From the IMG/VR virus record IMGVR_UViG_2617270940_000006: a stretch of DNA of 56,409 nucleotides; one strand, given 5' to 3'. The position numbers and the translations under genes are program-made. This document shows, piece by piece, positions 1 through 56,409 of this stretch; the stretch's first letter is position 1, and every line of letters begins with the position of its first letter. This DNA is from a virus. Taxonomy: Duplodnaviria; Heunggongvirae; Uroviricota; Caudoviricetes. The notes below the pieces were generated by a model, which was given only the letters and a program-made list of their open reading frames with translations, made no database searches and was not told the origin of the DNA.

Positions 1-906
1 CTATATTTCCAGACACCTGTTATCACTTAACCCATTACTGGCCTGCTGCCGCAGATATTCCCGTGGCGAGCGATAACCCAGTGCACTATGCGGATGCCAT
101 TCGTTATAATGCTCGAACGCCTCTGCAAGGTTCTTTGCTGCCGTTAACCCGTCTGGTTTAGGCATGATACTGATGTAGTCACGCTTTATCGTTTTCACGA
201 AGCTCTCTGCTATGCCGTTACTCTCCGGACTCCGCACCGCCGTGTTCTTCGGTTCAAGCCCCAACATCCGGGCAAACTGCCGTGTTTCATTAGCCCGGTA
301 GCATGAACCATTATCCGTCAGCCACTCTACTGGAGACGCCGGAAGCTCGTTGCCGAAGCGGCGTTCCACCGCTCCCAGCATTACGTCCTGTACTGTTTCA
401 CTGTCGAAGCCGCCCGTAGTGACTGCCCAGTGCAGTGCCTCACGGTCACAGCAGTCCAGCGCGAACGTGACTCGCAGTTTTTCTCCGTTATCACAGCGGA
501 ACTCGAACCCGTCAGAGCACCATCGTTGATTGCTTTCTTTCACGGCCACTTTGCCAGTATGTGCCCGTTTCGATGGCGGTACAGCGGGTTTTCGCTCAAG
601 CAACAGCGCATTCTGGCGCATGATCCGGTAAACACGTTTGGCATTGATCGCAGGCATACCATCAAGTTCGGCCTGTCTGCGAAGCAGCGCCCATACCCGA
701 CGATAACCATACGTGGGCAGCTCTCCGATAACATGGTGTATACGGAGAAGCACATCCGTATCATCTGAGTGACGGCTGCGGCGACCATCTTTCCAGTCAT
801 CGGTTCGTCTGAGAATTACGTGCAACTGCGCACGCGACACCCGGAGACAACGGCTGACTAAGCTTACTCCCCATCCCCGGGCAATAAGGGCGCGTGCGCT
901 ATCCAC
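1..906 (-). CDS. insD: IS2 transposase OrfB (InsD)
   Basis: 301-aa ORF; transposase catalytic core with DDE-type residues; matches recalled IS2 InsD. Confidence 0.9.
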
Positions 907-1229
907 TTTTTTGCACGCCCGTATTCAACGGCTTCTTTAAGGAGTTCATTTTCCATCGTTTTTTTGCCGAGCAGGCGCTGGAGTTCTTTAATCTGCTTCA
1001 TGGCAGCAGCAAGTTCAGAGGCAGGAACGACCTGCTCTCCTGCGGCCACAGCAGTAAGACTTCCCTCCTGGTATTGCTTGCGCCAGAGAAATAACTGGCT
1101 GGCTGCCACACCGTGTTGCCGGGCAACAAGGGAGACCGTCATTCCCGGTTCAAAACTCTGCTGAACAATAGCGATCTTTTCCTGTGTAGTACGCCGTCTG
1201 CGTTTCTCCGGTCCTAAGACATCAATCAT
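864..1229 (-). CDS. insC: IS2 OrfA (InsC)
   Basis: ORF beginning [13 protein letters not shown], overlapping insD as in IS3-family frameshift arrangements; the ORF-track start at 1274 is an upstream extension. Confidence 0.8.
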
Positions 1230-1320
1230 CTGCTCTCCAATGACTAGTCTAAAAACTAGTATTAAGACTATCACTTATTTAAGTGATATTGGTTGTCTGG
1301 AGATTCAGGGGGCCAGTCTA

Positions 1321-1589
1321 GTCTGCGACGTGCCGGCATTGTCAAACCGGTAAAGGCTGTAAAAGCCGTTCCAGTAACAAAAGAAACCACAGGTGCTACA
1401 GTCACTGCAGGTATTGGCCTTGCACAAATTGCTGACGTTATGCCTCAAGTTTCTGCCGCAATGGATAAAGCGCAAGGCAATATCTCCAGTGGAGATACGG
1501 TACGCATCATCTTTGGCGTAGCTACCATTCTTGTGGCAGCATTCATTGCCTGGTCCCAGGTTCGCAAGCACCAGAAAGGATTAGTGTAA
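1321..1589 (+). pseudogene. 3' remnant of a gene interrupted by IS2; C-terminal hydrophobic segment
   Basis: The reading frame runs from inside the IS2 end into flanking DNA and has no plausible own start outside IS2. Predicted C-terminal TM helix (GVATILVAAFIAW). Confidence 0.3.
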
Positions 1590-1591
1590 GT

Positions 1592-1843
1592 ATGTTCGAC
1601 GGCCTGTTGTTCAAAATGAAATCCGCTTTGTTCACTCTGGCCGCCGTCATTCTAGTCCTTGTCGGCGCATACTCCTATGGCGGGTATATGGCCAGACGCA
1701 GTATGGAAGAGAAAGAACGGCGGGAAGATAACAAGCGTCTTCAAAGCACAGTGGAAGTGGTGAATGAGACGAACAGTGAAATACGTCAGAAAGATGCTTC
1801 TGCCATTCATCGTGAGCTGCATGATAAGTGGGTGCGTAATTAA
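1592..1843 (+). CDS. Rz-like i-spanin candidate
   Basis: 83 aa with an N-terminal TM segment followed by a charged coiled-coil-like region; a lipoprotein ORF overlaps its 3' end in another frame. Confidence 0.4.
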   Translation: MFDGLLFKMKSALFTLAAVILVLVGAYSYGGYMARRSMEEKERREDNKRLQSTVEVVNETNSEIRQKDASAIHRELHDKWVRN

Positions 1844-1979
1844 GCCACAGACCACCAGCGTGTTGTTCTGCGATGGCGCTGAACCTATTTATATCAGCAA
1901 TGACGATGTAATGACCGAAGAAACCGAACGCCAAATCCTTTTTCACAATACGATGGGAGAGAGAGTTTGCGGTTGGTGA
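1794..1979 (+). CDS. Rz1-like o-spanin lipoprotein candidate
   Basis: Starts within the preceding gene in a different frame; signal peptide with lipobox (MLLPFIVSCMISGC); short mature peptide. Confidence 0.4.
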   Translation: MLLPFIVSCMISGCVIKPQTTSVLFCDGAEPIYISNDDVMTEETERQILFHNTMGERVCGW

Positions 1980-2011
1980 TGTCGAAGTTCCCCTCAAATG
2001 AGGGGGACACA

Positions 2012-2533
2012 TTATTCTTCGAACAATTTTTCGATAGATTTTGTTGGATAGAACAAAGAACGATCGTTGTTACCAACCAGCTGGATAAAGCCCAAACTTT
2101 TATAAAACGCCCTAGCTTTATCGTTCAACGCCTCAACGAAAAGCCCATGAATGCCTACCGCAAGAGATGCATTGTACACAACACGCATTGCGTGAGTTAC
2201 AAGCATTGAGCCAAGCCCCTGACCTTGAAGAGATTTGTCCAAAGCCAGTCTGCCTAAAGTGATACTTGGGACATTCCGATAAGGCACTTTCTTTTGCTGA
2301 CTCTTTGAAGGTAAGGTTTCTTTCTCAAAGCAGCTGCCTGACAAAGTGTAATAACCTAATACCTTTGGTATTTCTTCTTTAGTGCAAAGCACATAAGCGC
2401 GAAGAATTTTTCCTTCATGCTGTCTTTTTAAGTGGTTGGTCAAAAATGCGTTTAGTGACTCTTCGCCGCAATCAAAACCGTTTAGATCATAATCGTTCTC
2501 TCCAGAGAAAATCTCGATCGTCGTATTGCTCAC
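2012..2533 (-). CDS. GNAT-family acetyltransferase toxin (TacT/AtaT-like)
   Basis: 173 aa with GNAT core motifs (QGQGLGS); directly downstream of a small DUF1778-type partner gene. Confidence 0.8.
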   Translation of the reverse strand: MSNTTIEIFSGENDYDLNGFDCGEESLNAFLTNHLKRQHEGKILRAYVLCTKEEIPKVLGYYTLSGSCFEKETLPSKSQQKKVPYRNVPSITLGRLALDKSLQGQGLGSMLVTHAMRVVYNASLAVGIHGLFVEALNDKARAFYKSLGFIQLVGNNDRSLFYPTKSIEKLFEE

Positions 2534-2540
2534 GAGTAAA

Positions 2541-2810
2541 TTACTCCATGCTTTTCAGACGATTGGCAGCTCGTTTCAGCTTGTCGTTCGGTGCCGGAGG
2601 ATTGCTTATAGCATCCATAACCAGATTCCAGGACTCTTCACTTAGAACCAGTCTACGGTGTTGCTCTATCACCTTCACGGCACGTTCGGATGCACTGCTA
2701 ACCATGAACTGGGTAATGCTCTGGTTAGACATTGCGGCAGCTTCCTCGATGATGCTTTTATCGTCATCGGTTAATCTCAAATCGATGCGCTGCTTTTTCA
2801 GTGCGGACAT
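2541..2810 (-). CDS. DUF1778/RHH-type antitoxin (TacA-like)
   Basis: 89-aa ORF 8 bp upstream of the GNAT toxin gene; typical antitoxin-first operon order. Confidence 0.75.
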   Translation of the reverse strand: MSALKKQRIDLRLTDDDKSIIEEAAAMSNQSITQFMVSSASERAVKVIEQHRRLVLSEESWNLVMDAISNPPAPNDKLKRAANRLKSME

Positions 2811-3129
2811 GTGTACCCCCTGATGGCCGGTGATGTAGGAAGGCCATCATTGCTCTCTATTTAAACTGAGTTTTCGACTCAAAGGTTATTTAACTGGGCT
2901 ATAGCCCATTGCGTATGTGTCATCAAATTGTGTACGGCAATTTACCGTACACGTAATATAGAGATGATTGTCACTTTTTTCAACAGACAAATGATAACAA
3001 TTACTAGCAATAGGCAATAACAACCTACTAAATAACCTTTACACCGCAGCCGTAGGCATTTAGGCTATATCGCATATAAGAAAACAAGTTGTTTCATACG
3101 ACAATAATTCACGCAAAGGAAACTCACCA

Positions 3130-3795
3130 ATGACCAAGATCATTGTGGTTGGCGGCACAAAAGGCGGCCCAGGCAAATCTACCGTTGCCCAGCAAATTGC
3201 GGTATGTCTCAAAGTTAAAAAGAAAAAGAAGGTTCACGTCACCGATATCGATATCCAGCGCACCACGACCAGCTGGTGTGAAGACCGTCGCCAGAACGAA
3301 GATCTTGAACTGATCCCGTTCGCTTATGTGCAGGACGACATCGTCAAACATCTTAAATCGCTTCAGGGGCGAACTGATTATGTAGTGGTAGATGCTGGTG
3401 GCTTTGACTCCGAAATTCAGCGTCTGGCGATGCTTATGGCTGATGTAATCATCATCCCGCTGCGCCCTAAACGTCGTGATTTGAAATCTCTGCGTGATAT
3501 CGACCCGATTATCGACAACGTTCGCAATGTGAACGAGAAAGTTAAGATCCGCGCGGTAATAAACCAGTGTCCGTCATTGCCTTCCCAGGTATCACGTATT
3601 CTAGCCGCGAAGGAAATTGTCGAAACTTTCGGCATCGAGGCTGCGCCGGTCAATCTGTACAACCGTAACGTTTATGACGATGCGGAAGAGGCAGGTCGTT
3701 CTATCTTTGAAATGACTGGCGCTGAACGCGATAAGAAGGCAGAAGCCGAGTTCGAAGAGTTTGTAGATTACATCTTGAGTCTGGAGGAAGAATAA
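3130..3795 (+). CDS. parA: ParA-family partition ATPase (small type)
   Basis: Deviant Walker A (GGTKGGPGKST); 221 aa; followed by a small overlapping partner gene. Confidence 0.85.
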   Translation: MTKIIVVGGTKGGPGKSTVAQQIAVCLKVKKKKKVHVTDIDIQRTTTSWCEDRRQNEDLELIPFAYVQDDIVKHLKSLQGRTDYVVVDAGGFDSEIQRLAMLMADVIIIPLRPKRRDLKSLRDIDPIIDNVRNVNEKVKIRAVINQCPSLPSQVSRILAAKEIVETFGIEAAPVNLYNRNVYDDAEEAGRSIFEMTGAERDKKAEAEFEEFVDYILSLEEE

Positions 3796-4154
3796 TGTCC
3801 ATGAGAATGGGAGACCTTGCAAAGCGCAATGAGCCTAAAGAACCGGCCAAAAGCAGCACTCCACTGCGCCAGCCAGTCAGACCGCAGGGGCGTCCGACTC
3901 GTGGCAAAGAGAAAATTAAAAGTCGCACAATGTCACTGGAGGACGAATACTTCGAACTGCTGGAAATGATGAAGTTCATCCCTCGTTTCGAGAAGTTCAC
4001 CCGTTCTGACGTGATTCGCGCCGCCATTTTCCATCTGGCAGAGAAGTCACCGCAGGAAATCGAGGACATCGTGAAACTTAACGAGGCGATCACAGCTGCC
4101 GATGTCACGATGCGTACCGATGAAATCAAACGAGAGTTGATGAAGAAAGGTTAA
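3795..4154 (+). CDS. Partition DNA-binding partner candidate (ParG/ParB-like)
   Basis: 119 aa; start overlaps the parA stop (TAATG); basic N-terminal tail and a short folded C-terminal domain. Confidence 0.45.
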   Translation: MSMRMGDLAKRNEPKEPAKSSTPLRQPVRPQGRPTRGKEKIKSRTMSLEDEYFELLEMMKFIPRFEKFTRSDVIRAAIFHLAEKSPQEIEDIVKLNEAITAADVTMRTDEIKRELMKKG

Positions 4155-4157
4155 AAA

Positions 4158-4192
4158 TTATGCATTGGCGCAATGTACGCGCCAATGCATAA
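4158..4192. terminator. Bidirectional hairpin between convergent genes
   Basis: 14-bp perfect stem (TTATGCATTGGCGC/GCGCCAATGCATAA) with a 7-nt loop, flanked by an A-run and a T-containing tail. Confidence 0.5.
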
Positions 4193-4206
4193 GTACAGTG
4201 TCAGCT

Positions 4207-4974
4207 TTATGCCGCGCTAACACTATGTTCATTCCTAACCACCCCAACCTTCACAAAAGGGCTGCCGTAGCTTGGTGGCTTCTTGATTAATTTGCCTACA
4301 TACAGTTTTCTAATATGCTCATCGGCTATTCTGCCAACAAATTCATAACGTTTTGTGTCGGGGCCAAGAGCTATATCCCTTGTAAAGTACTGCTGAGAAC
4401 CGGCTTTGACCCAGCATTCAATCTGATAAACTTCCATTATCAGGCCCCCATATGTAGCGTAGGCATATTTGAGATTCTCGTCTCTTGGAACCTTTGCCCA
4501 TACGCCACGCGTAGCTTCATATAATGCCAGAGCGGACATTCCTGACTTGTAGGTGCTGTTTAGCAGGAAGGCAAGACCGGCGTGCTCAGGAGCAATTTCA
4601 GTTTCCTCTTGCAGCACTAAGTGATGGTAGGCGTCCAGTGATATTCTGCCCATCATGGAACCACTTCCTCGTACCTTATTCGTAAGCTCTCCGACACCCA
4701 TAAGGTCGATGCATGTCGCCTCAACAAGTTTGGCTGTGGTTTCATCCATACCATGACGAAGAATATCTATGCCTAATTTTTTATTAGCCAAAAGTTCTTT
4801 GATCCGCATGGATTTGGGAGAGTCATCGGGATACTTGATGTGATCGAGACAACGAGTCGATTTGCCTTTTCCTATGTAAAACGGTCTTTTCATCTTGTCT
4901 TCTGTATCATAGAGACAGTAAACATAGTATTTAGCCTTATCCAATGATCTCGCGTATACCGATAAATCGTCCAT
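4207..4974 (-). CDS. GIY-YIG nuclease-domain protein (free-standing)
   Basis: N-terminal YVYCLYD...PFYIGKGKSTR matches the GIY-YIG motif; about 150-aa C-terminal region of unknown fold. Confidence 0.6.
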   Translation of the reverse strand: MDDLSVYARSLDKAKYYVYCLYDTEDKMKRPFYIGKGKSTRCLDHIKYPDDSPKSMRIKELLANKKLGIDILRHGMDETTAKLVEATCIDLMGVGELTNKVRGSGSMMGRISLDAYHHLVLQEETEIAPEHAGLAFLLNSTYKSGMSALALYEATRGVWAKVPRDENLKYAYATYGGLIMEVYQIECWVKAGSQQYFTRDIALGPDTKRYEFVGRIADEHIRKLYVGKLIKKPPSYGSPFVKVGVVRNEHSVSAA

Positions 4975-5256
4975 TATTGCATCTCTTAGCTACTGACTAA
5001 TGCGTTCTATTTTACACATAAGTTTTTAATCAATTTTACAGGCTCAAAGTGTAGAGCTTCTGGGTGTCTAAGACGACAAGTTATGCCTGTTTCTGTATAT
5101 AAATAATAAGTAACTTATTAAATATATACGGAAGCAGGTCTTTTAAAAGACACCCACCAGAACAACTCCCTTCCGTTTCCACTTCCCAAAAATATCTCCA
5201 GTCGCTATGATTCGCTCACTTAGATAAGTAAGTACATACCTATTAAAGGGAATCAT

Positions 5257-6042: not shown

Positions 6043-7383
6043 ATGACCGAACTTTGCCACACAGGACGAGGGTTGTCTGAAGAGTTCGACGACGACTTCC
6101 AGAATCGACTCGCAGCCTACTTCTGTCGCGACCATGAATTTCTGACTCGCGCCGGTGATCTGGTTGCGCCAAACCAGTTCTCCAATGCGGCCAACGCCAT
6201 TCTGGTGAACATGGTGTCGGGCTACTACAGAATGTATAAGAGCGCACCATCATCATCAGCCATCCTCGACATGCTCAAACGCGCCAAACGCGATAAGACG
6301 ATCCGCGAAGAGCTGTTCCCTGACGTTGTTGAGGCGTTTAAGCGCATTCTCGCTGAGAAGCTGTCAGATACGGCGTACATGGTCGACCAGGTCGCGACAT
6401 TTGCTAAAAGCGTAGCGTTCGACGATGCGCTAATTAAAGCGGCTGAGATGAAAGAGAAGGGTGATTTCCAGGGCGCGATGGCAATCATGGCTAAGGTCCA
6501 GCAAATTGGCTCTAACGAAGCGACCGGCATTTACGATTACTTCGCAGAATCAGCGGAGCGTTACAAGGCCCGTGAGTACGAAGCGTCCGACGATTACGTG
6601 CCAAACAGCATCACTACCGGCCTCCCGCTGCTCGACAAGCTGCTTTACCAGAAAGGCTGGGCAAAGCGTGAAATGGTGCTGTTTATGGGCTTCGCTAAGT
6701 CTGGTAAATCGACGGCGATGGGGGAGTTTTCCATCAACGCCACGCTTGCCGGTTACAACGTCCTGTATCTGTCGCTGGAAGTTCACACCTCCATTCTGTC
6801 AGATCGCTTTGACGCCCGTCTGTCTGAGACCGAAATGTCCAGGCTGGTGGAACGTCGCGATGACGTCCATCGCAAACTGGCGGAGCTGGGTGCGACGAAA
6901 GGCGTGGGAAGTTTGTGGATTGTTGAACGACCGTCCGGAAGCATGTCGCCCGCAGATCTGGACCGTATGTTGGGCAGCATGAAAGCCAACGGTATGGTCC
7001 TCGATATGGTTGTGGTCGACTACGCTGACCTGATGCGTGCCAGCTACGACCTCCGCGACGACCGCGCTAACATTCGCAGCATCTACACTGACCTGCGTGC
7101 GCTGTACGACAAACACAACGTTGCCGGCATCACGGCATCGCAGACTAACAGAGAAGGTGGCGCTTCTGAGGTGGCTACAATGATGCACGCAGCGGACAAC
7201 ATCGAGAAGGTGCGTATCGCTGACCTCGTTATCACTATCAACAAAACGGAAGAAGAAGAAGCGAAAGGCGAAGCGCGTCTTTACTTCGCTGGTTCACGTA
7301 ACCAGAAAGGCGGCGTAAGCATCCGCGTTAAGCAGAACCTCGAACAAATGCGATTCATCGAACGCATTATGGACGTCCTCTAA
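6043..7383 (+). CDS. DnaB-like replicative helicase
   Basis: RecA-fold C-terminal domain with Walker A (GFAKSGKST) and Walker B (VVVDYADLM); conserved AAAGGAAAGCACATG start context. Confidence 0.8.
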   Translation: MTELCHTGRGLSEEFDDDFQNRLAAYFCRDHEFLTRAGDLVAPNQFSNAANAILVNMVSGYYRMYKSAPSSSAILDMLKRAKRDKTIREELFPDVVEAFKRILAEKLSDTAYMVDQVATFAKSVAFDDALIKAAEMKEKGDFQGAMAIMAKVQQIGSNEATGIYDYFAESAERYKAREYEASDDYVPNSITTGLPLLDKLLYQKGWAKREMVLFMGFAKSGKSTAMGEFSINATLAGYNVLYLSLEVHTSILSDRFDARLSETEMSRLVERRDDVHRKLAELGATKGVGSLWIVERPSGSMSPADLDRMLGSMKANGMVLDMVVVDYADLMRASYDLRDDRANIRSIYTDLRALYDKHNVAGITASQTNREGGASEVATMMHAADNIEKVRIADLVITINKTEEEEAKGEARLYFAGSRNQKGGVSIRVKQNLEQMRFIERIMDVL

Positions 7384-7470: not shown

Positions 7471-8655
7471 ATGAGCCTTTATGGTATTCAAATACCGAGG
7501 CTTATCAAGATATTACCTGCAAAAAACAGGGGTAAGAACGTGAGCGACTTGAAAGAATTACTGACCGAGCTGGATTTTGAGCAATGGCTCGATATGGAAG
7601 GGATCATCTACCGTCATGGTGGAGTCAGTACTCGCGGACGAGAGGTCAACATTAAAGAGTGTCCGGTATGCGGCAGCTCAAACTGGAAGGTTTATTTCAA
7701 CCTGACCAGTGGTGTCGGCAAATGCTTTGCAGGTGATCATCCCGAAGAGATTCAGTTCAATAAGCTGGTCTTCCTAAAGCATTACAGCGGCAAATCCCGT
7801 CGCGATTTTGAAGAGTACGTCCAGAACGCGCTGATCTCACAAGGTTGGGCGCCGAAGAAGGAAGAGATCGTGCTGGCCAGCAAGGTTGAACTGGAAGGAC
7901 CGGTAGCTCTCCCGCGCCATTACGAACTCCCCATTGACGGTCGTCTTCCTGATTATCTGGTGGAGCGCCAGATTTCCCCGGAGCTGGCCAAATACTTTGA
8001 TCTGCGTTACTGCGTCGAAGGCAAGCACGCATACGTCGATCCGTACACAGACCAGGTCAAAGGACAGGTATTCGATATGCGAATACTGATACCGGTTTAC
8101 GATCTGGATGGCGTGATGAAGACCTTCCAGGGTCGTGACATTACCGGTGCAGCAGAACGCCGGTATCTGTTCCCCATGCAGCTGCCAGCATCGGGTAAAT
8201 TTCTCTACAACGGCCACAATGCAGTCGGCAAACAGACTGTAGTTGTCTGTGAGGGGGCGTTCGATGTTATGGGGGTTAAACGAGCTATTTTTGATGAAGA
8301 AACATTACGCGATTACGTGGAACCGATAGGAACGTTCGGGATGCATCTATCTGGTAACACCACTCAGGATGCAGAAGATCAGTTGGGCGCGTTCCTGACG
8401 CTCAAGGCGCGTGGATTACGTAATGTGATTATGATGTGGGATAGTGAAAAGCAAGCTATACGCAACACGATGGCCGCAGCCAGGCGACTGACCAGTATCG
8501 GTCTTAATGTCAAAGTAGCGTGTTTGGGCGAGGAAGGACTCGATCCCGGCGATGCGACACCGGGGCAGATTATCAAAGCCTACTATTGCGCAAAACCTTA
8601 TTCACGACAGCTTGAACTTTTAAGCAAGGTAAAAGGCATAGCTGCATTAGTTTGA
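7471..8655 (+). CDS. DnaG-like primase (zinc finger + TOPRIM)
   Basis: CPVCGSS...C zinc motif and a TOPRIM-like VVVCEGAFD segment; start chosen at the ATG with the conserved context, not the upstream track start. Confidence 0.8.
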   Translation: MSLYGIQIPRLIKILPAKNRGKNVSDLKELLTELDFEQWLDMEGIIYRHGGVSTRGREVNIKECPVCGSSNWKVYFNLTSGVGKCFAGDHPEEIQFNKLVFLKHYSGKSRRDFEEYVQNALISQGWAPKKEEIVLASKVELEGPVALPRHYELPIDGRLPDYLVERQISPELAKYFDLRYCVEGKHAYVDPYTDQVKGQVFDMRILIPVYDLDGVMKTFQGRDITGAAERRYLFPMQLPASGKFLYNGHNAVGKQTVVVCEGAFDVMGVKRAIFDEETLRDYVEPIGTFGMHLSGNTTQDAEDQLGAFLTLKARGLRNVIMMWDSEKQAIRNTMAAARRLTSIGLNVKVACLGEEGLDPGDATPGQIIKAYYCAKPYSRQLELLSKVKGIAALV

Positions 8656-8788
8656 ACCAGTATTATCAACGGCTCGGAAGTGTCTAAATTATCCGTGGCG
8701 ATTCATAACCTTGCGGCTGCTCACCCCATCAAGAAGCATCTTTAACGCGTCACGGGACAATTTGTTGTATTTGCGTACCATTAATTTA

Positions 8789-42454: not shown

Positions 42455-46173
<3,719 letters not shown>

Positions 46174-47392: not shown

Positions 47393-47398
47393 TAACAC

Positions 47399-47998
47399 TA
47401 TCCACTGCGGTGAGTAGCCAGTTCACCGCGTGTGAATCCGGCTCATAACCACTGTAGCGAGTAGAACACCCTTCAGGTATGCCCCCCAACCACTGTAGTG
47501 AGCAAACCCTCTGCCACGATATCAACTATCCACTGTAGTGAGTAAATTGGTGATTATCGGGGTCGCTATACACTGTAGTGAGTAAACAGGCGTTCACTGA
47601 CTACAAACAACCACTATAGAGAGTGATGGAATGCCCCCTCCAGCGGATATCCACTATGGAGAGTAAATCTTCGCTGTTTTAAACGGATATCCACTCACTA
47701 CAGTGGATAGAGGTCAAGTCAGCCAATTCTGCTCTTCACAGTGGATAGTCAACAATGAGGAGAGCGACGATAACCGCTGTAGAGAGTAGACTTAACAGAG
47801 ATACCCAGTGACCGCTAACCTCTCAGCCCTTGTTTTATCTATGTTTGCAACCACTAACATTTACTTCGCGATTTGTGCGCACTGCCTACAGTGGTTATTC
47901 TTCGGTTTCTTTTACTCACTACAGTGGATATTGCATTTCCGATAAACAAAAAGGCTCACTACAGTGGATAGTGAGCCTTTTTACTCTCTACAGTGGTT
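47399..47998. repeat. Iteron array downstream of repA (incA-like copy-control locus)
   Basis: About 14 copies of a 19-bp-class repeat with core CCACTGTAGTGAGTA, in both orientations. Confidence 0.8.
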
Positions 47999-48001
47999 GG
48001 G

Positions 48002-49057
48002 CTATTTGCGAGCCTTTGCCTTGCGCAGCTCTTCGAGAATCGCCAGTTCTTCCTTGCTCAACATGACCATTTCCCCGTCTTTTTCTTCAGGGGCAACATC
48101 GATAATGTCCTCCGGATCATCACCTGGCAAGATATCTTCTGGCTCTTCAGGCGTGGCCATAGATGGCGGCAGTGCCGAACGTAACTTCGGCCGTCTATAG
48201 TGGATGACGAAGTAGACCGAGCTGCCGCGTTTCACTTCAGTGTAATCGAGATAGCCGATCTCTCGCAGCTGCTCCATCGCCTTCCTGACTGTCGCATTCT
48301 GGGTAATGGTGCGGCTGGTTAAGTTAAGTCTGGCGCGTAAGCGAGCCAATGAGATTGGCGCCGGGTCTGGTGGCAAACTTTCAATGAAGGTGTAGAGCGC
48401 CTGCGCGGATTCTTTTCTGGAGAGTTCGTTGATGGCCCGAAGTTGCAAAAGCACCTTTTTGTCGAACTGGTAAAGTTCGAAAATCTTAGGATCGGCCTTC
48501 AGTTCGACCGTGTCATTCTTGGTACTGTACTTTGCCGTCTGCACAAGGTGCGTAACGTAATACTCTTCAGAGCCTTTGCTGCGGAATGAGATGGTGTTTG
48601 TGGCGATACGACTTAGAGAGCTGTCCAGGCGCTTACGTAACTTCGCGGACGATCTGGCTGTTGGTATGCCACAAAGTCTGACGAACTCGACGAACGGCAA
48701 CGTGACGGTGTCACCAACAACCTTGTGCTTGGCGAACGCGTGGATGATGCCCACCCATGTTTTGAAATCGTTATCCATATCAAGACGAAGACCAGCAATC
48801 CTTATATCCTCGTACCCTTCGGCTTTGGCCAGAGACAGCTGTTTGAGTTCAGCGGAGGCGTCCATAGAGACCATTTGCCCCTTTCTACCCCTGGATGTCG
48901 ATTTCAGCGTCGGAACGAAGAGACCAAGACGCATCAGAGCAACAGGCTGAACTGTGTTGTTGGTGTTAGGAACTAACGTAACAACTTCGCCGGTCTTTTT
49001 GTCTGTTTCGGAAAATGCTTCGCTTATCGCAATGTTTTTATTGTCGTTTACGCTCAT
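48002..49057 (-). CDS. repA: RepA replication initiator (P1 RepA-like)
   Basis: [19 protein letters not shown] and later blocks match recalled P1 RepA; flanked by iterons on both sides; about 65-aa acidic C-terminal extension. Confidence 0.9.
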
Positions 49058-49100
49058 TCCAAATGTCTCTTTTTATTCGACGGCTTGGGTGCCTTTACTG

Positions 49101-49339
49101 ATTACAGTGGATAGTAGCACCCATCACAGTGGTTATCCTACCGCCTACAGCGGTTTTTCTACTCTCCATAGTGGTTGATTTACTCTCTATAGTGGTTGTT
49201 CTTCTCACTATAGTGGATATCGATAACCTCTAAAGCCATGTGGCACAACGGTTTGCAGGGGCCGGGGATCTCTTTGGGTCTTTGTGGTTCTCTTTGGTTC
49301 TAACAGGGATCTGAATTACTGGATCGGGCCTGTGTATAA
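49101..49339. promoter_or_regulatory. Origin-like module: 6 iterons, GATC cluster, DnaA-box-like site
   Basis: Iterons (core CTACAGTGGTTAT) at about 21-bp spacing over 49101-49225; GATC at 49267, 49308 and 49322; TTATACACA on the complementary strand at 49331-49339. Confidence 0.75.
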
Positions 49340-49500
49340 AAATCAGATAATTACAAAATCAGGCATCACTCCCCTTCTGGGGATAATGTGTGATCGAAAT
49401 AAACACGCCGCAACGCAAAATTTACAATATTTCCAAGAATATCAGTCATCTGCCGCAGAAAAACAGGCTCGGAGTTATCCAGTTAAAACATTGTCTCCTA

Positions 49501-49714
49501 CTCACTACAGTGGATACCGACTACTCTCCAGAGAGGTTGTTTTGCTCTTCATAGCGGTTATTATGCTCTCTACAGTGGTTATTTTGCTCCCTATAGTGGA
49601 TAGTAACCCCTTCTCAAGCCAGTAACCGCAAGCGCTGGAGACGATCGGGGATCTCTTTTGATCTTCTGTAGGATCTCTCTGGGGATCTAAATATTGGATC
49701 GGGCCTGTGAATAA
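49501..49714. repeat. Second iteron / GATC / DnaA-box module
   Basis: About 5 iterons over 49501-49608; six GATC sites over 49643-49700; TTATTCACA on the complementary strand at 49706-49714. Confidence 0.65.
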
Positions 49715-49799
49715 AGTGAATAAGTAAACAGGCATTTGCAAACTCCGGTGCGCCTTATCCGTTATCGTTGCCCCGGACAAAATTATTTGAACAAGAATT

Positions 49800-50444
49800 A
49801 TGGATCTTAAACGCACGCGCTGGGTTCGCCGTCTTGAAGATGGCTCCTACACCATTGAATCAAACACTAGTCTGAACAAACAGAAGTTGCTCTGCGACCT
49901 TTGCGGCATTGCTTCGAAATGCCCGATTAACGAAACCCGGCTTAAACTCCACGACGCCGGTGCGCATTTCCACCTAAACAGCTGCATACGTTACGTGCCA
50001 CTACTAGCATTTCGTAAACCGATCATCGGATTGGATGCTCCCTACTTCAACACACTGCGCTCTGGTGTCACTTGGCGAGATCGTGTCGAACCTGGCAAAC
50101 TCGTTTGTCTGGTTGAAGCTGATACCGGAAATGTCATCCGGTTCGGGAGAGTTGATAAGGTCTACTCAGGCCCAGTGGATGAAATGCTGCGGAAACACAG
50201 CCGATTTAACCATCTCTGCATGGGCGGAGAGAAGATTGAGAAGGTTGGCGAAGTAATTCGCAAATCTTACGGACACTTTCTGAATGATAACAGCCTTCTG
50301 ACAGCCATTTACATTCGCCATGTCGATCGGGAGTTCGACACGGAGTATCACAGTGCTGAAGAGTTGAATCTTGTAGACCCTCGTCCAAAAGCTGGGGTAA
50401 TAGACATCAGCAGAGCGCGTCAGAAGCCCTCAGAGACGTTTTAA
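49800..50444 (+). CDS. Hypothetical protein
   Basis: 214-aa ORF; no recognisable motif. Confidence 0.45.
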   Translation: MDLKRTRWVRRLEDGSYTIESNTSLNKQKLLCDLCGIASKCPINETRLKLHDAGAHFHLNSCIRYVPLLAFRKPIIGLDAPYFNTLRSGVTWRDRVEPGKLVCLVEADTGNVIRFGRVDKVYSGPVDEMLRKHSRFNHLCMGGEKIEKVGEVIRKSYGHFLNDNSLLTAIYIRHVDREFDTEYHSAEELNLVDPRPKAGVIDISRARQKPSETF

Positions 50445-50840
50445 AGGCAAACTCATGCTTTTTACCGGGCATAAAATATGGTGTCTTAGAAAGACACTGA
50501 GAGCTTTAGGGATTAATGCATGAGTGAATTTTATTCAAGAGCAGAAACTGTGGCCGACGGATGCGTTTGAAGACGACGCACGCAAACGCCGTAGATGTCA
50601 TCTCACAACTTCACCGTCCGTTCTCCTTTTTCATTTCTTGTCATCAGTAAATGACTGCTCTCATAAAATTGCTTGTGACGTTTAGAAATCGTTGCTGCCC
50701 TATCTGATAGGTATTTACTTACTTATTTTTTTGTCATTATCATGTGCCTTTATATTCTTTTGTATGCCGTGTTGTCTGGGTTGTACGCCTCTTATGCACG
50801 CTTAGAATTTGTATCAAAATAACCACAAAGGAAAAGACAC

Positions 50841-51926
50841 ATGACATTGCCATACGGGGTAATATCAGATCCCCATTATCATCGTTGGGATGCTTTTGCG
50901 ACAACAAACGCTGACGGGCTTAACTCTCGGCTGGAGATCCAACTGGACGCTACGAAGGAGGCGGCCAAAGCGATGAAAGCTGCTGGCTGTAAGCACATGC
51001 TGGTAGCTGGTGATACCTTCCATGTTCGCGGTGCTATATCACCTTCCGTTCTGCATTTCGTGACCGAAACTTACGAGTGGATCATCAAAGAGTTGGGTCT
51101 CAAGGTGGTAATGCTGGCTGGCAACCACGACCTCGAAACCAACGATTCCGTATACAGCGCCAATGCAGCAGCCTCTCTGCGCTCAATCGGTGTGGAAATC
51201 GTCTGCGGCAAACGTCCTCATTCCATCAAAATGGGCGACGTAACCGTCCATCTGATTAGCTGGCGTAATAACCACGCAGAACTTATCAGCGATCTCAAAA
51301 CGCTGCGTTCCGGGCTGGATGGTGACAACCATGATGTTGTTGTACATACCTCAATCAACAAAGCGATCCCCACCATGCCCGATGTCGGCATCGACGCACA
51401 GGAACTGAAAGATATCGGCTTCCGTTTATTGTTGTCCGGGCACTACCACAACCACAAAGAAGTGCTGCCTGGAGTGGTAAGTATCGGGGCGCTGACACAC
51501 CAGAATTGGGGGGATGTTGGTTCACTGGCCGGCTTCATGATCGTCAAACCGGACGGCTCATTCACTCACCACGAAACCTCGGCACCTAAATTCGTGAACC
51601 TTGAGGACGATGTAGATGACGATCAGATTCGCGGCAACTACGTGCGCTTCCGTGCCGTTGTTGAGAGCGATGAAGAAGGCATCAAACTTCAGAACGTCCT
51701 GAAAACAATGGGCGCGAAGGGTGTCGTCTGCAACTTCATTCGCAAGGCATCGATGATGGAAGGCGCTGCCAGTACTGCGGAAACCAGCAAAATTGACAGC
51801 CTGGGAGAGTCCGTTGCGGCGTACTGCAAGATCGTTCACGACACTGACGGTGGCTTCGACCTGAGCAAACTGGACATACTGTGTCAGGAGATCTTGACCG
51901 AAGCAGAGAGTGCGGAGGCTGTGTGA
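50841..51926 (+). CDS. SbcD/Mre11-like nuclease
   Basis: Calcineurin-like phosphoesterase motifs DPHYH, GDTFH, GNHD; conserved start context. Confidence 0.8.
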   Translation: MTLPYGVISDPHYHRWDAFATTNADGLNSRLEIQLDATKEAAKAMKAAGCKHMLVAGDTFHVRGAISPSVLHFVTETYEWIIKELGLKVVMLAGNHDLETNDSVYSANAAASLRSIGVEIVCGKRPHSIKMGDVTVHLISWRNNHAELISDLKTLRSGLDGDNHDVVVHTSINKAIPTMPDVGIDAQELKDIGFRLLLSGHYHNHKEVLPGVVSIGALTHQNWGDVGSLAGFMIVKPDGSFTHHETSAPKFVNLEDDVDDDQIRGNYVRFRAVVESDEEGIKLQNVLKTMGAKGVVCNFIRKASMMEGAASTAETSKIDSLGESVAAYCKIVHDTDGGFDLSKLDILCQEILTEAESAEAV

Positions 51927-52155
51927 GGCAACGTTATTATGGGAGCTTTCGAGATTTTGCCATCGTGATGAAAAAACTTCAAAAAGGCCAGACGGTTATG
52001 TTTCACAAGCCATACCCTTCAGGAGGAAATCCCGTAGCGTTTTATCTTGGAAGGCTAACCAGAAAAGGCTTATTGAATCGCAGATCCTTCCCCGCGCATA
52101 CGGAGTTCAGATTGAAAGATGGTCAAAAGTTAACACACGATATCAGAGGTGTTAT

Positions 52156-54072
52156 ATGAAGTTTTTAAAGCTCCAGGTTGAAAATTTTATGGCAATCGCC
52201 AGCGCAGAAGTCGAGTTAGACCAGCGTGGACTGGTGCTGATCCAGGGTGTGAACAGTGGCGATACGTCTGCTGCCAGCAATGGCGCCGGGAAATCCACTC
52301 TGATGAATAGCTTAATGTGGTGTCTGTATGGTGAGACTGCACATGGCGTCAAAGGCGATGACGTGCTGTCGACGGGCCATGAGAAGAACTGCCGTGTGAT
52401 GGTTACAGTTGAAGACGAAGGTAAGAAATACGCGATCATTCGCCATCGTAAACACAAAGAGTTCAAGAACCGACTAATCGTCCGTGGTGAAGACGGTGAT
52501 ATGACCAAAGGCAAGGACACGCTGACACAGACGTTCGTAGAACGTCTGATTGGGGCATCGAAAGAGGTGTTCATGGCGTCCATCTACGCCAGTCAGGAAG
52601 CGATGCCAGATCTGCCCGGTATGTCCGACAAGAGCCTCAAAACCATCGTTGAAGAAGCTGCTGGCGTCGACCGATTGACGCGAGCCTATGCCATTGCCCG
52701 CGAGCGTGCTAATGCAGCTGCCGCACGTATGGACGTTACCAAATCCAAAATGGACGCCTGTCTCACGCTTATCGAGACTGCACAGTCAGAGATTGAGGCG
52801 GCCAAAGCGTCCTCTGAAAGCTGGGAGCGCGATCGCGGCGAGCGTCTGGACAAGGCCCGAGCCGATTTGGCTGGCGCGGAGGTAACACTGTCTGAAGTCG
52901 AGATGGAAATTCGCTCGCTGCCGGAACAGATCCGTGATACGGAAAACGCGATTGCTGGCGAACGCAGCAAGCTGGCCTCCAAAGAAGAGCATGACGCCAA
53001 ACTGCTGAAGGTGCGCAGTGCTATTACTGAGATCCGCTCAAGCATCCGTACTTCAGAAGCGGCACAGAACGAGTCGATAAACCGTGCTCGCTCGTTTAAA
53101 ACCAAAGCTGAAGAGGTCAGCACAAAGATCGGGGCACCCTGCATTACGTGCGGAAAGCCCTACTGCGAAGAAGATTTATCCACGGTGAAGGAGAGCTTCA
53201 TTGAACAAGCGCGCAATGAGATCGGCCTTGCGCAGACATCAGCAGCGGCAGTGGCTCAACACAAGGCTCGTCTTGAGAAAGCGCTCGGTATCGAGTCTGC
53301 ACTGGTCGCAGCCACACCCGACGTCTCAGAAATCATCTCCACAATAGAACGCCTGACCAATGAGCTAAGTGCGCTGCGTCATCGCGAACGTGAAGTTGTG
53401 GCCGTCGAAGCGATGGTTGCGCGGGCGCGTACTGAAGTGAATCGCATCATGGCGGAAGCAAACCCATTTCTGGCCGTTATTAAGCGCCATGAAGACAACC
53501 TGGCTGCCAATAAATCTAATCATGCAGTACTTAAAAATGAGTTAAAGAGCATTCAGGAACAGGCTCTGTTGCTGGAGAAGGCCCGCCAGGTTTACTCCCC
53601 AGCAGGCGTGCGTTCACACATCCTGACCTCCGTTACGCCTTTCCTGAACATCAGGACTGCGGAGTATCTCAACACGCTGTCGGACGGCAATATCGTTGCC
53701 GAATGGTCGACAATGGAGACAACGAAGAAAGGTGAGTATCGCGACAAATTCAATATCAGCGTAATCAAAACAGGCTCCAGCAAATCCTTCCAGACTTTGT
53801 CTGGTGGTGAGAAGCGTAAGGTACGTATTGCGTGCTCTCTGGCTTTGCAGGATCTGGTTGCCAGTCGCGCCAGTAAGAATATCGAGCTATTTATCGGTGA
53901 TGAAATTGACGACGCGCTCGACACAGCCGGTCTGGAGCGTCTCATGGGGATTCTGGAAGCCAAAGCGCGTGAACGTGGCACAGTGATGATCATCTCCCAC
54001 AAAGAGATGAAATCGTGGTTCCGGGAAATTATCACTGTCGAAGTTAAAGAGGGGCGCAGCTATGTCGTTTAA
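52156..54072 (+). CDS. SbcC/Rad50-like ATPase
   Basis: Walker A (GAGKST), central coiled coil with CxxC zinc hook (CITCGKPYC), signature LSGGEKRK, Walker B (LFIGDEIDDALD). Start set at MKFLKLQ with an RBS. Confidence 0.85.
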   Translation: MKFLKLQVENFMAIASAEVELDQRGLVLIQGVNSGDTSAASNGAGKSTLMNSLMWCLYGETAHGVKGDDVLSTGHEKNCRVMVTVEDEGKKYAIIRHRKHKEFKNRLIVRGEDGDMTKGKDTLTQTFVERLIGASKEVFMASIYASQEAMPDLPGMSDKSLKTIVEEAAGVDRLTRAYAIARERANAAAARMDVTKSKMDACLTLIETAQSEIEAAKASSESWERDRGERLDKARADLAGAEVTLSEVEMEIRSLPEQIRDTENAIAGERSKLASKEEHDAKLLKVRSAITEIRSSIRTSEAAQNESINRARSFKTKAEEVSTKIGAPCITCGKPYCEEDLSTVKESFIEQARNEIGLAQTSAAAVAQHKARLEKALGIESALVAATPDVSEIISTIERLTNELSALRHREREVVAVEAMVARARTEVNRIMAEANPFLAVIKRHEDNLAANKSNHAVLKNELKSIQEQALLLEKARQVYSPAGVRSHILTSVTPFLNIRTAEYLNTLSDGNIVAEWSTMETTKKGEYRDKFNISVIKTGSSKSFQTLSGGEKRKVRIACSLALQDLVASRASKNIELFIGDEIDDALDTAGLERLMGILEAKARERGTVMIISHKEMKSWFREIITVEVKEGRSYVV

Positions 54073-54808
54073 CTTGAGCCGCACGCAGTTTTTGCAGATG
54101 TTTGCCGTGATGCAGTCTATAAAGCTGATAAACAACCATACAGCAAAAGTAACTCCGCCTGCACTTTTGTGGAAAAACGTAAACATCAGCGATGACCAGT
54201 TCTCGGTATTAACCAATCTATTGTCATCGACTCCTTTGATGCCGAGCTTGGCTAATCTGCCGTCAGGAAGCACTGCGCCGATCCTTATTAATCCATTTAC
54301 GGAAGGTGGATATCTCCCACATTCTGGGCCGGGGTTCGTTGTGATTCCTGAAACCGGAACGCTGAACATCCAAGAAAATGCACTCTTCAATGCAATGGAG
54401 ACGCACATCAGCACCGCATTCACTAATCTGATTCGACACGCTAACGCACGCGCGGATCACGTTGCAATGCCGGGTGCTGCCTTCGCCAGCTTCTCTGTTG
54501 ACTATGACCGGCACGCGCCAATTTCAAAGCGGGCGAAACTCTGCTTTTACGAGGAGGGATGTGAAGTAGCGATTATTGAAGTTCTTCTCCCCCATGTATT
54601 CAGCGCGAATGAAACGGCTGCACACCATCTGATCGACATCATGCGGCATTTCATCGGCCAGAGCATGATCGATGCAGACATTGCTGCAGGCGTTCTAACC
54701 AACGATAGCATTCACGTTGTTAGCGACATTCCGAAGCCGCCAACTCGAGAGCCGGAAAAGACACTTGAACAGAAACTAATGGAATGCCCAACCTGGGCTA
54801 CGTGGTAA
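54062..54808 (+). CDS. Hypothetical protein
   Basis: 248-aa ORF whose start overlaps the sbcC-like stop. Confidence 0.45.
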   Translation: MSFNLSRTQFLQMFAVMQSIKLINNHTAKVTPPALLWKNVNISDDQFSVLTNLLSSTPLMPSLANLPSGSTAPILINPFTEGGYLPHSGPGFVVIPETGTLNIQENALFNAMETHISTAFTNLIRHANARADHVAMPGAAFASFSVDYDRHAPISKRAKLCFYEEGCEVAIIEVLLPHVFSANETAAHHLIDIMRHFIGQSMIDADIAAGVLTNDSIHVVSDIPKPPTREPEKTLEQKLMECPTWATW

Positions 54809-54819
54809 GGAGACCAAAA

Positions 54820-55560
54820 GTGAGAGGAAGAGCGACAAAATTAAGAAAAGATGCGAAACCTATCAATCCCGACGATTTCGACGGAAATTTCATTAGAGAG
54901 TTGGAGCCAATATTTGATTCAAGGGGGCGTAAGCGCCGAATTGTTGAGCTTGAATGCTTTATCTGCGGTCATCGATTCTCTGCAAACCTTGAGAACGCGA
55001 AGCGAGTCAGACAGAAGACCTGCTCAAACAAATGTGCCGGAATATATCGCCAGAACGCAGAATATAAAGTCATGGAAAACCCTCTGTACTGGACTTGGTC
55101 AAGTATGAAGGCGCGTTGTAACAATCCAAATCGGGCAAGATACGAAAAGTATGGTGGACGGGGAATATCTTACGCCACCGAGTTCGAGGATTTTGATAAT
55201 TTTTACAGGTATGTTTCCGTACTTGAGAGCTATCCGTTTTCCGATACGGAGAGAGTTGTAGAGGGGGTTACGCTTGATCGCATCGACTCCAGCAAGGGAT
55301 ATGAACCAGGGAATCTGAGGTGGGCTGACAAGCACGTCCAGAGTGCAAATAAACAAGGGAAAGTGGATGGTAGTACGTCGAAGTTTACTGGCGTTCATTA
55401 CTGCAAAACGAACAAGGTTTGGGTTGCTAGAGTTGTGTGGAAAGGAGAGTGTGTCTTCTTGTATCAATGTCACGATGAATTGGAGGCTTACTTAGCGCGT
55501 AAGCGATTTATCGAAGAGCACAATCTACCGCATTTTGTTGAAATGGAGGTCACAGAGTGA
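54820..55560 (+). CDS. DNA-binding protein with zinc-ribbon and AP2-like domains
   Basis: CxxC...C segment, WSSMKARCNNPN...YGGRGI block and C-terminal AP2-like segment (GVHYCKTNKVWVARV); GTG start after AAGGAG. An upstream ATG at 54784 is an alternative start. Confidence 0.4.
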   Translation: MRGRATKLRKDAKPINPDDFDGNFIRELEPIFDSRGRKRRIVELECFICGHRFSANLENAKRVRQKTCSNKCAGIYRQNAEYKVMENPLYWTWSSMKARCNNPNRARYEKYGGRGISYATEFEDFDNFYRYVSVLESYPFSDTERVVEGVTLDRIDSSKGYEPGNLRWADKHVQSANKQGKVDGSTSKFTGVHYCKTNKVWVARVVWKGECVFLYQCHDELEAYLARKRFIEEHNLPHFVEMEVTE

Positions 55561-55988
55561 AAAAAGTAATCAAAGTTGCAGGTCTCGATCCATCTCTGTC
55601 AAATTTTGGCGTTGCCATCGGAGAAATAGAACTGGATTCAGGTGCATTGCAGGTCAATAAGTTGCATCTCATTGAGACGAAAGCTGGTGATACGAAAAAG
55701 CAAGTTCGCGTTAACAGTGACGATATGCGGCGGTTGAACGAGATTTGGCGTGGTATTAAGCCACTGATTGACCAAGTTCATTTAGTGTTCTGTGAACTGC
55801 CAGTAGGCAGTCAATCTGCTAGAGCGATGGTTTCTTATGGTGGTTGTCTTGGCGTACTGGCGTGTGTGGATAAGCCACTGATACAGGTCACGCCAAACGA
55901 GATTAAGTACTATGTCGGGAATAAGCTGACTACGTCGAAAGAAGAGATCATTCAGTGGGCTACGCAGGTAATGACTCCAACTTATTGA
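55557..55988 (+). pseudogene. RuvC-like Holliday-junction resolvase, 3' end replaced by IS1
   Basis: N-terminal GLDPSLSNFGVAIGE and internal blocks collinear with the RuvC family; the last 7 codons and stop lie inside the IS1 terminal repeat. Confidence 0.6.
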
Positions 55989-56409
55989 TAGTGTTTTATG
56001 TTCAGATAATGCCCGATGACTTTGTCATGCAGCTCCACCGATTTTGAGAACGACAGCGACTTCCGTCCCAGCCGTGCCAGGTGCTGCCTCAGATTCAGGT
56101 TATGCCGCTCAATTCGCTGCGTATATCGCTTGCTGATTACGTGCAGCTTTCCCTTCAGGCGGGATTCATACAGCGGCCAGCCATCCGTCATCCATATCAC
56201 CACGTCAAAGGGTGACAGCAGGCTCATAAGACGCCCCAGCGTCGCCATCGTGCGTTCACCGAATACGTGCGCAACAACCGTCTTCCGGAGCCTGTCATAC
56301 GCGTAAAACAGCCAGCGCTGGCGCGATTTAGCCCCGACGTATCCCCACTGTTCGTCCATTTCCGCGCAGACGATGACGTCACTGCCCGGCTGTATGCGCG
56401 AGGTTACCG
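55967..56409 (-). mobile_element. IS1, partial (continues beyond the window)
   Basis: GGTAATGACTCCAACTTATTGATAGTGTTTTATG matches the recalled IS1 end; InsB reading frame present. Confidence 0.95.
55982..56359 (-). CDS. insB: IS1 transposase InsB reading frame
   Basis: [88 protein letters not shown] matches recalled IS1 InsB. Confidence 0.9.

Follow-up and report, generated by a model that had tools for sequence, protein, structure and literature searches.

Backbone, cargo and insertion-sequence interruptions in the non-structural half of a probable SSU5_pHCM2-group phage-plasmid of Escherichia coli

The phage-plasmids related to the Salmonella phage SSU5 and to the Salmonella Typhi plasmid pHCM2 are known in the literature as the SSU5_pHCM2 group, which belongs to the SSU5 supergroup. 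These extrachromosomal replicons are about 94-126 kb in size and are assigned to IncFIB by plasmid typing tools. The gain and loss of insertion sequences (ISs), as well as non-inducible and defective members, have been reported for this group; the PD-T4-3 defence gene and restriction-modification (R-M) systems have been described in the SSU5-type elements of Escherichia coli (E. coli), and pilus genes in the shell genome of the supergroup. In this study, we examined the virus record IMGVR_UViG_2617270940_000006, the whole 56,409-nucleotide (nt) stretch of which is referred to as the window hereafter. The genes were called from an open reading frame (ORF) listing and from profile searches against Pfam, PHROGs and PADLOC, and the records NC_018843 (SSU5) and NC_003385 (pHCM2) were used as references. 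Coordinates are window positions, and (+) and (-) indicate the strand. The window, of about 56 kb, is very probably the non-structural half of an E. coli phage-plasmid of the SSU5_pHCM2 group, and this segment would extend from the final part of the lysis cassette to the nuclease genes for double-strand-break repair. This high confidence covers the classification and the scheme of maintenance and replication; the suspected lytic defect discussed below is excluded from it. The element type, the cargo classes and the IS-driven variation are already published, and the current understanding is unchanged. What is added here is a map of the backbone and the cargo, the correction of the labels 'UvsX', 'T4-type' and 'P1-type', an intein in RecA, and two specific gene disruptions. 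The practical value lies in correct annotation: the usual labels ('IncFIB plasmid', 'porphyrin biosynthesis protein', 'LAGLIDADG homing endonuclease' and 'membrane protein') conceal that the element is a phage-plasmid equipped with a lysis cassette, a replisome of its own and a RecA that bears an intein.

When SSU5 was compared with the whole window by local blastn, 55% of the bases were aligned at a mean identity of 91.3%, and the alignments formed one collinear series spanning SSU5 positions 28,316 to 67,604. The corresponding values for pHCM2 were 57% and 90.6%. In a megablast search against phages, SSU5 was the best match, covering 78% of the window region 16000-37000 at 92.9% identity. 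At the protein level (tblastn), the window was found to hold full-length homologues, free of stops, for 39 SSU5 proteins; the aa (amino acid) identities were 65-100%, mostly above 90%. The gene order common to SSU5, pHCM2 and the window begins with the lysis cassette, parA, the helicase-primase pair, the ligase, tRNA-Asn, the CobT/AAA pair and DnaE, and continues with the gp32-like single-stranded DNA-binding protein (SSB), FEN, RecA, repA with its iterons, SbcCD and a RuvC-like gene. The first-pass annotation, made from the letters of the window, had proposed a mosaic characteristic of the SSU5/pHCM2 group, and this proposal was borne out. The best matches of the backbone are SSU5, pHCM2 and about 12-19 near-identical E. 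coli plasmids, the whole-sequence comparison with SSU5 and pHCM2 gives a single syntenic series at about 91% nt identity, and the components that had been named are all present as ORFs with significant family matches. A best match to an unrelated element lacking structural genes was also looked for, and this is not what was found: a relative, S56 plasmid B, has a full structural module.

The differences from the two references are of two kinds. One is gain: relative to SSU5 and pHCM2, the window additionally carries a TacA/GNAT pair, a PD-T4-3 gene, phd-doc, Yeh-like fimbriae, the RecA intein, a type I R-M system with PDC-S11, an HNH endonuclease, IS2, IS1 and IS scars. The other is loss: SSU5_031/032, 035-037, 041, 053, 055, 063 and 071/072 have no counterpart in the window, and SSU5_027, 062, 064 and 077 are truncated. 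In the blastn comparisons, the regions that were aligned to neither reference are 1-1320, about 1962-3034, about 4153-5085, about 8616-16095, 34647-35912, 37276-46180, about 54820-55673, and 55967 to the end. All the window sequence that is not alignable to SSU5 or pHCM2 is cargo or mobile element.

The replication genes were examined with respect to the suggestion that the replisome is of the T4 type. A DnaB-like replicative helicase (6043-7383, +; Pfam DnaB_C) and a DnaG/Toprim-type primase (7444/7540-8655, +; Pfam Toprim_2) form a pair covered by PHROG 19 and PHROG 47, and they share 99% and 95% aa identity with SSU5_039 and SSU5_040, respectively. The ATP-dependent DNA ligase (17561-18883, +; Pfam DNA_ligase_A_M) lies within a backbone block of SSU5_042 to SSU5_048 homologues (16157-19709, +; 82-98% aa identity, no stops). 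The polymerase (27409-30915, +) had been described as Pol III alpha-like, and its PHP, DNA_pol3_alpha, finger and HHH_6 domains in Pfam agree with this description; it is intact and 93% identical in aa sequence to SSU5_052. The SSB (32165-33181, +) matches the gp32 family over the full profile (Pfam PF08804, E 9e-72), and it should be regarded as a distant member of this family, because phmmer gave no match to solved structures at E 0.01 or below. The next gene encodes a FEN-type 5'-3' exonuclease (33191/33242-34186, +; Pfam 5_3_exonuc_N and 5_3_exonuc), whose best match in the PDB is T5 FEN (1exn, E 7e-17) and which is also close to the 5' nuclease domain of Pol I. The recombinase (34455-36797, +; Pfam RecA PF00154) carries the intein. 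When the intein was removed, the protein matched bacterial RecA structures at E 1e-35 to 1e-30 and T4 UvsX (3io5) at 1.8e-5; it is thus of the RecA type by both the PDB and the Pfam matches, and the earlier label 'UvsX-like' was rejected. Finally, the SbcD-like (50841-51926, +; Pfam Metallophos, PHROG 100 E 1e-95) and SbcC-like (52156-54072, +; Pfam AAA_23 and SMC_N, PHROG 77 E 5e-166) nuclease subunits are intact, with 98% and 96% aa identity to SSU5_073 and SSU5_075, respectively.

The likeness to T4 therefore consists of the gp32-family SSB, the SbcCD-type nuclease, which is matched to T4 gp46/gp47 at the family level only, by the PHROG profiles, and homing-endonuclease-type genes scattered in the replication region. 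Within the replisome, the T4 designation holds for the SSB and for SbcCD. However, T4 has the family B polymerase gp43 and UvsX, whereas the window has a DnaE-type polymerase, a RecA-type recombinase and a T5-like FEN, and for the polymerase, the recombinase and the 5' nuclease the designation had to be abandoned. On induction, the element would use its own replisome, composed of the DnaE-type polymerase, the DnaB-like helicase, the DnaG-type primase, the gp32-family SSB, the ligase and FEN, and recombination-dependent concatemers would be processed by the intein-containing RecA, SbcCD and a RuvC-like resolvase. This scheme and that for the prophage state given below were drawn from the gene set together with the knowledge of P1, iteron plasmids and SSU5.

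The replicon is centered on repA (48002-49057, -), which encodes a Rep3-family initiator (Pfam Rep3_N and Rep3_C) of the IncFIB(pHCM2) type. The product is 94% identical to SSU5_069, and it shows 46% aa identity to P1 RepA across 269 aa (E 8e-76). A pattern search for the iteron 16-mer CTCACTACAGTGGATA with three or fewer mismatches found 18 copies, against 0.31 expected in the window, and all of the 18 copies are located within 47399-49602, on both sides of repA. Of these, 13, found in either orientation, make up an iteron field downstream of the gene (47399-47999) that is analogous to incA of P1. Upstream, the iterons (49098-49602) are arranged at a 21-bp spacing like that of P1 incC, as seen from the repeat families and the TRF period of 21. 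The origin region in this upstream part consists of two diverged modules in tandem (49098-49345 and 49501-49715; repeat families D1, D2, D8 and D10), and in each of them iterons spaced by 21 bp are accompanied by a GATC cluster and a DnaA-like box: six GATC sites occur in 49643-49697 and three in 49267-49322, and the boxes are found at 49331 and 49706. This two-module duplication upstream of repA is kept in SSU5 and pHCM2.

The origin region upstream of repA is similar to the annotated layout of P1 oriR. The likeness to P1 includes the RepA homologue, the iterons on both sides of repA (the incC/oriR plus incA layout), the GATC clusters and the DnaA-like boxes, although the iteron sequence itself differs from that of P1. 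The resemblance does not extend to the partition genes. The window encodes a ParA-like Walker ATPase of 221 aa (3130-3795, +; Pfam AAA_31/MipZ/CbiA) and a small partner protein (3864-4151, +; the SSU5_034 homologue), which show 98% aa identity to SSU5_033 and SSU5_034. In a tblastx comparison with P1, no homologue of P1 ParA/ParB/parS, Cre-lox or RepL/oriL was found in the window, the matches being limited to phd-doc, tRNA-Asn, repA and IS1. Judging from these comparisons, the partition ATPase of the window is unrelated to P1 ParA. As to the P1-type maintenance that had been claimed for this element, RepA with its iterons and phd-doc conform to the claim, and partition and Cre/lox do not, since they have no tblastx match in P1. 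In the prophage state, the element would be a low-copy plasmid maintained by an iteron-controlled initiator of the Rep3/P1-RepA-like type, a Dam/DnaA-type origin and a small ParA-type partition system. A tRNA-Lys of 81 nt reported by ARAGORN at 3118-3198 (-), overlapping the parA start, is likely a false positive; Rfam supports tRNA-Asn alone.

Maintenance would also involve post-segregational killing through two toxin-antitoxin pairs, namely, the P1-derived Phd-Doc and TacA/GNAT. The former pair consists of doc (8789-9166, -) and phd (9166-9390, -), whose products show 92% and 94.6% aa identity to P1 Doc and P1 Phd, respectively. The P1-derived cassette as a whole (8696-9454, -) corresponds to P1 positions 88009-88725, with a nt identity of 91.2% over 717 nt; besides the two genes, it retains the phd promoter region of P1 and a stub with the first codons of pdcA, and a pdcA fragment is annotated in a relative. 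SSU5 and pHCM2 have no phd-doc, which is horizontally acquired cargo outside the group backbone. It was also noticed in the P1 record that the phd-doc segment is 98% identical to the sequence upstream of the EcoDXXI hsd locus of a conjugative plasmid, and phd-doc is therefore a travelling cassette. The latter pair consists of a TacT-like GNAT toxin (2012-2533, -; Pfam Acetyltransf_1) and a TacA/DUF1778 antitoxin (2541-2810, -; Pfam TacA1, E 3.5e-26), and it is absent from SSU5 and pHCM2. With regard to GNAT genes, SSU5_071/072, i.e., a GNAT acetyltransferase and its neighbour located between the repA region and sbcD, are cleanly absent at window position 50585-50610; the TacT-like GNAT near parA is a different one.

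The near-identical E. coli plasmids provide a closer frame of comparison. When 15-25-kb parts of the window were used as queries, 12-19 PLSDB records and 17 complete genomes gave a coverage of at least 80%. These relatives are typed as IncFIB, and those of ordinary size have the full terminase-portal-capsid-tail module. Two of them are particularly close: pYUXYEH3934-1 (NZ_CP110979, 188 kb) is 100% identical to the window across 25001-55967, and S56 plasmid B (NZ_CP010244, 113 kb) is 99.5% and 98.5% identical to the two halves of the window. Both share with the window the fimbriae, phd-doc with the pdcA stub, TacA/GNAT, the PD-T4-3-type GIY-YIG gene, the intein, the hsd island and the IS scars, but they have neither the IS2 in the endolysin gene nor the IS1 in the RuvC-like gene. 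The siphovirus structural module of S56 plasmid B is complete (terminase, portal, capsid, tape measure and tail fibres), and so is its holin-endolysin-Rz cassette. Three features set pYUXYEH3934-1 apart: an IS26 multiresistance island of 27 kb, an additional IncFIB replicon and the deletion of the tail module. In place of the genes from tail terminator to tail fibre, this plasmid has about 67 kb of DNA, made up of resistance and F-type plasmid sequence lying between IS26 copies. As read from this record, the loss of the tail genes shows that decay occurs in this lineage.

The two ISs that are private to the window lie at its two edges. An IS2 of the IS3 family (1-1320, -) is 95.8% identical to K-12 IS2A, whose positions it covers from 1320 to 1; it is complete but for its final 11 bp, cut off by the start of the window, and orfA (864-1274) and orfB (1-906) are intact (Pfam HTH_Tnp_1 and rve). 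It is inserted in the endolysin homologue SSU5_027, with a clean junction at 1320/1321, corresponding to codon ~142 of 230. What follows is the 3' remnant of this gene, codons ~142-230 (1321-1589, +; tblastn, aa 140-230, 85%), and then the Rz/Rz1-like spanin genes at the end of the lysis cassette (1592-1976, +; PHROG 1026 E 4e-22; the homologues of SSU5_028 and SSU5_029). Both pYUXYEH3934-1 and S56 plasmid B carry an uninterrupted copy of this endolysin gene. A full-length relative matches PHROG 873 'endolysin' at E 1.7e-85, and its N-terminal ~125 residues also match the transglycosylase-type domains of tail proteins. The endolysin gene is flanked by a holin-like gene and Rz/Rz1, and the window retains only the C-terminal, membrane-anchor part of the product. 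At the other edge, an IS1 (55967-56409, +), of which positions 1-443 fall inside the window and share 99.8% identity with the P1 copy, cuts the gene for a RuvC-like Holliday-junction resolvase, SSU5_077 (55557-55966, +), after codon 137 of 189. By tblastn, only aa 1-137 are left; a full-length relative matches PHROG 159 at E 1.7e-53.

We then searched for these two junctions elsewhere. No record spanning the IS2/endolysin junction was found among 5,426 complete E. coli genomes or in PLSDB, nor, by exact 30-mer, in IMG/VR or the GTDB species genomes, and the IS2-truncated endolysin ORF gave no match in an exact-protein look-up. The IS1/RuvC-like junction is likewise absent from the 5,426 complete E. 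coli genomes. On the other hand, the IS1-truncated resolvase has an exact-protein match in one 9,922-bp short-read contig (SRR1186759, Logan contig 199). This contig is 100% identical to window 46071-55992, and it breaks 25 bp into the IS1 and at the IS3-family fragment. That sample therefore contains this element, IS1 insertion included; as the junction occurs in an independent read set, the insertion is real and is not peculiar to one assembly.

It had been claimed that multiple ISs hit backbone genes. This is correct for IS2 and IS1, which interrupt the backbone, and incorrect for the other two, which are located at cargo borders. One of these is at the border of the fimbrial island (14512-16092, -) and is composed of a degraded IS2-like element (14512-15537; 80% identity to IS2, without IS2 positions 28-340) and a second IS fragment. 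The other is an N-terminally truncated fragment of an IS3-family rve transposase at the border of the hsd island (45487-46173, +). Both scars are common to S56 plasmid B, in which they are annotated as pseudogenes, those at the fimbrial border being frameshifted or partial. Because they are degraded, located at cargo borders and common to relatives that keep all the structural genes, these remnants are old scars, and they were rejected as recent backbone hits. Thus, the suspected lytic defect rests on two real, recent IS hits, not four.

The endolysin homologue should be required for lysis. With this in mind, we lean towards the reading that plasmid life is still possible and that lysis or packaging is impaired, so that the element is a defective phage or is becoming so. 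Several points weigh against this reading. One is that the window does not reach the genes for virion structure and packaging, the holin, the 5' part of the endolysin gene or the DNA past either IS, so that lytic incompetence is what we infer from the two interruptions. Another is that the endolysin call is based on the PHROG profile, the RefSeq annotation of SSU5 and the gene position, while Pfam finds no domain in this homologue and its PGAP name is 'membrane protein'. In addition, the RuvC-like resolvase may be dispensable, and the IS ends at the window edges could mark IS-mediated rearrangements instead of simple insertions. If the IS2 and IS1 hits truly block the lytic cycle, they would be one more example of the decay of a phage-plasmid to a plasmid, and such decay has a bearing on the route, infectious or purely vertical, by which the genes for resistance, defence and adhesion on these elements are spread. 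Going a step further, and more tentatively, it is possible that this copy was caught turning into a plain plasmid, the two recent, lineage-private IS hits having abolished phage release. If this is true, selection would still act on the complete, autonomous replisome and the replicon, as well as on the addiction modules and the cargo for defence and fimbriae, and the element would be a natural intermediate for the study of phage-plasmid domestication.

The window might instead belong to a larger cointegrate formed through ISs, or to a remnant that has become a plasmid, as in pYUXYEH3934-1; the structural genes would have been partly deleted, and the SSU5-type segment would act solely as the backbone of a plasmid with cargo for defence and adhesion. 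The closest relative, 100% identical over 31 kb, is indeed a 188-kb IncFIB hybrid whose tail module was deleted between IS26 copies; both window edges are within IS elements, and phage-plasmids decaying into plasmids are on record in the literature. Nevertheless, we consider this rather unlikely: the 27-kb resistance island and the IS26 copies of pYUXYEH3934-1 are missing from the window, the left half of the window is closer to S56 plasmid B, a complete 113-kb element, and no sign of fusion to another replicon is seen in the window. Less probable still is that the element remains a fully competent temperate phage-plasmid, in which the IS insertions are tolerated through another muralytic function or a co-resident prophage and the resolvase is dispensable; an intact virion module of the SSU5 type would then be present in the remainder of the replicon. 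The cassette has a single endolysin homologue, in which IS2 has cut off the 141 catalytic N-terminal codons from those of the membrane anchor; a polar effect is expected on Rz/Rz1, which lie downstream of IS2, and a second lysin was not seen in the window. These facts have to be set against the intactness of every other backbone gene in the window, the whole structural module retained by S56 plasmid B with the same cargo, and the literature reports that several SSU5_pHCM2 elements with resistance islands are still packaged after induction. As for an unrelated plasmid or a chromosomal island with phage-like replication genes that is no phage-plasmid, nothing favours it beyond the lack of structural genes inside the window, and it is effectively refuted by the unbroken synteny (about 91% nt identity) that the window shows with SSU5 and pHCM2 and by the fact that every near-identical record is a plasmid of the SSU5_pHCM2 group.

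The preferred reading of a functional plasmid with an impaired phage cycle concerns the IS hits; the intein in RecA is of another nature. This LAGLIDADG intein of 422 aa (34647-35912, +; Pfam Intein_splicing and LAGLIDADG_3) is inserted in the Walker A loop, at GPPSAGK|T. In the alignment to the intein-less SSU5_060, which is without exactly the 422 intein residues, the relevant positions read C65...TFRH...SHN486|T487, and the two LAGLIDADG motifs are LMGYLIADGYV and FLRGYFELECHV. By its residues, the intein is assignable to class 1 (canonical), with Cys1, the block B TxxH, the terminal His-Asn and a +1 Thr. It is precisely absent from SSU5 and pHCM2 and polymorphic among the E. coli relatives. 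Because of the canonical residues and its exact absence from SSU5_060, it should be a selfish insertion that splices out and causes no lesion. Inteins at the same GK|T position occur in archaeal RadA. In the PGAP annotation, the whole recombinase gene is labelled 'LAGLIDADG family homing endonuclease', which masks the recombinase.

Two other genes of the homing-endonuclease type were found. A free-standing HNH endonuclease gene (54784-55560, +; PHROG 374, E 2e-36) is located between the SSU5_076 and SSU5_077 homologues, and its absence from SSU5 and pHCM2 is visible as the alignment gaps at 54820-55673. A GIY-YIG nuclease gene of the PD-T4-3 defence type (4207-4974, -; PADLOC PD-T4-3 E 1.3e-23, Pfam LEM-3 GIY-YIG) is also absent from SSU5 and pHCM2, and the match to the PD-T4-3 model suggests that it could have a defence role instead of a selfish one. 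As compared with SSU5 and pHCM2, there are thus three insertions of the homing-endonuclease type (GIY-YIG, HNH and the LAGLIDADG intein) in the replication/recombination region.

The larger cargo would supply the host with Yeh-like fimbriae and with anti-phage defence, the latter consisting of the type I R-M system with PDC-S11 and of PD-T4-3. The fimbriae are encoded by a chaperone-usher operon of four genes (9572-14381, -; Pfam Usher E 1e-183, PapD_N and Fimbrial). The major subunit (13833-14381, -), the chaperone (13097-13831, -) and the usher (10593-13085, -) show 29%, 54% and 62% aa identity to K-12 YehD, YehC and YehB, respectively. For the tip/adhesin subunit (9572-10702, -), which is part of the same operon, no similarity to K-12 YehA was detectable. 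By these similarities, the operon is classified as a divergent Yeh-type system.

The hsd cargo island (37092-46180, +) replaces the backbone from the 3' part of SSU5_062 to the 5' part of SSU5_064. Both genes were truncated by the island, SSU5_062 being left as an SPFH gene stub (37092-37274, +), and relatives with the same truncations keep complete virion modules. The genes hsdM (37480-39945, +; Pfam N6_Mtase/HsdM_N, PADLOC MTase_I E 2e-268), hsdS (39945-41267, +; Pfam Methylase_S, PADLOC Specificity_I) and hsdR (42455-45472, +; Pfam HSDR_N/ResIII, PADLOC REase_I) all occur in one operon with uninterrupted frames. A DUF4268 gene (41277-42440, +), which matches the PADLOC candidate family PDC-S11 at E 5e-181, is situated between hsdS and hsdR. 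HsdM is unusually long, at 821 aa, and no Pfam domain was found in its C-terminal ~320 aa.

A tRNA-Asn (GTT) gene (20453-20526, +) was found by ARAGORN and supported by Rfam at 76 bits; it is 90% identical to the tRNA-Asn of P1. Directly 3' of it is a flexible islet (20570-23537, +) that holds an ORF of 171 aa, a tyrosine integrase (21598-22701, +; Pfam Phage_integrase) and a small regulator (22696-23094, -). The integrase islet is absent from SSU5 and is present in pHCM2 at 82% identity. No convincing att-like direct repeat was seen on reading both borders of the islet, and the integrase may be a multimer resolvase. In pYUXYEH3934-1, the same locus is the site of the 27-kb IS26 multiresistance island, and the ligase-PhoH interval, which is this locus, is given in the literature as the single insertion site of antibiotic resistance genes in the group. 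The conserved group backbone resumes downstream with a CobT-like vWA protein (23597-25897, +; Pfam CobT_C E 1e-108; the SSU5_049 homologue) and an AAA_5 ATPase of the MoxR/CobS-like kind (25993-27228, +; Pfam AAA_5; the SSU5_050 homologue), a pair lying between tRNA-Asn and the polymerase that is annotated as 'porphyrin biosynthesis protein'.

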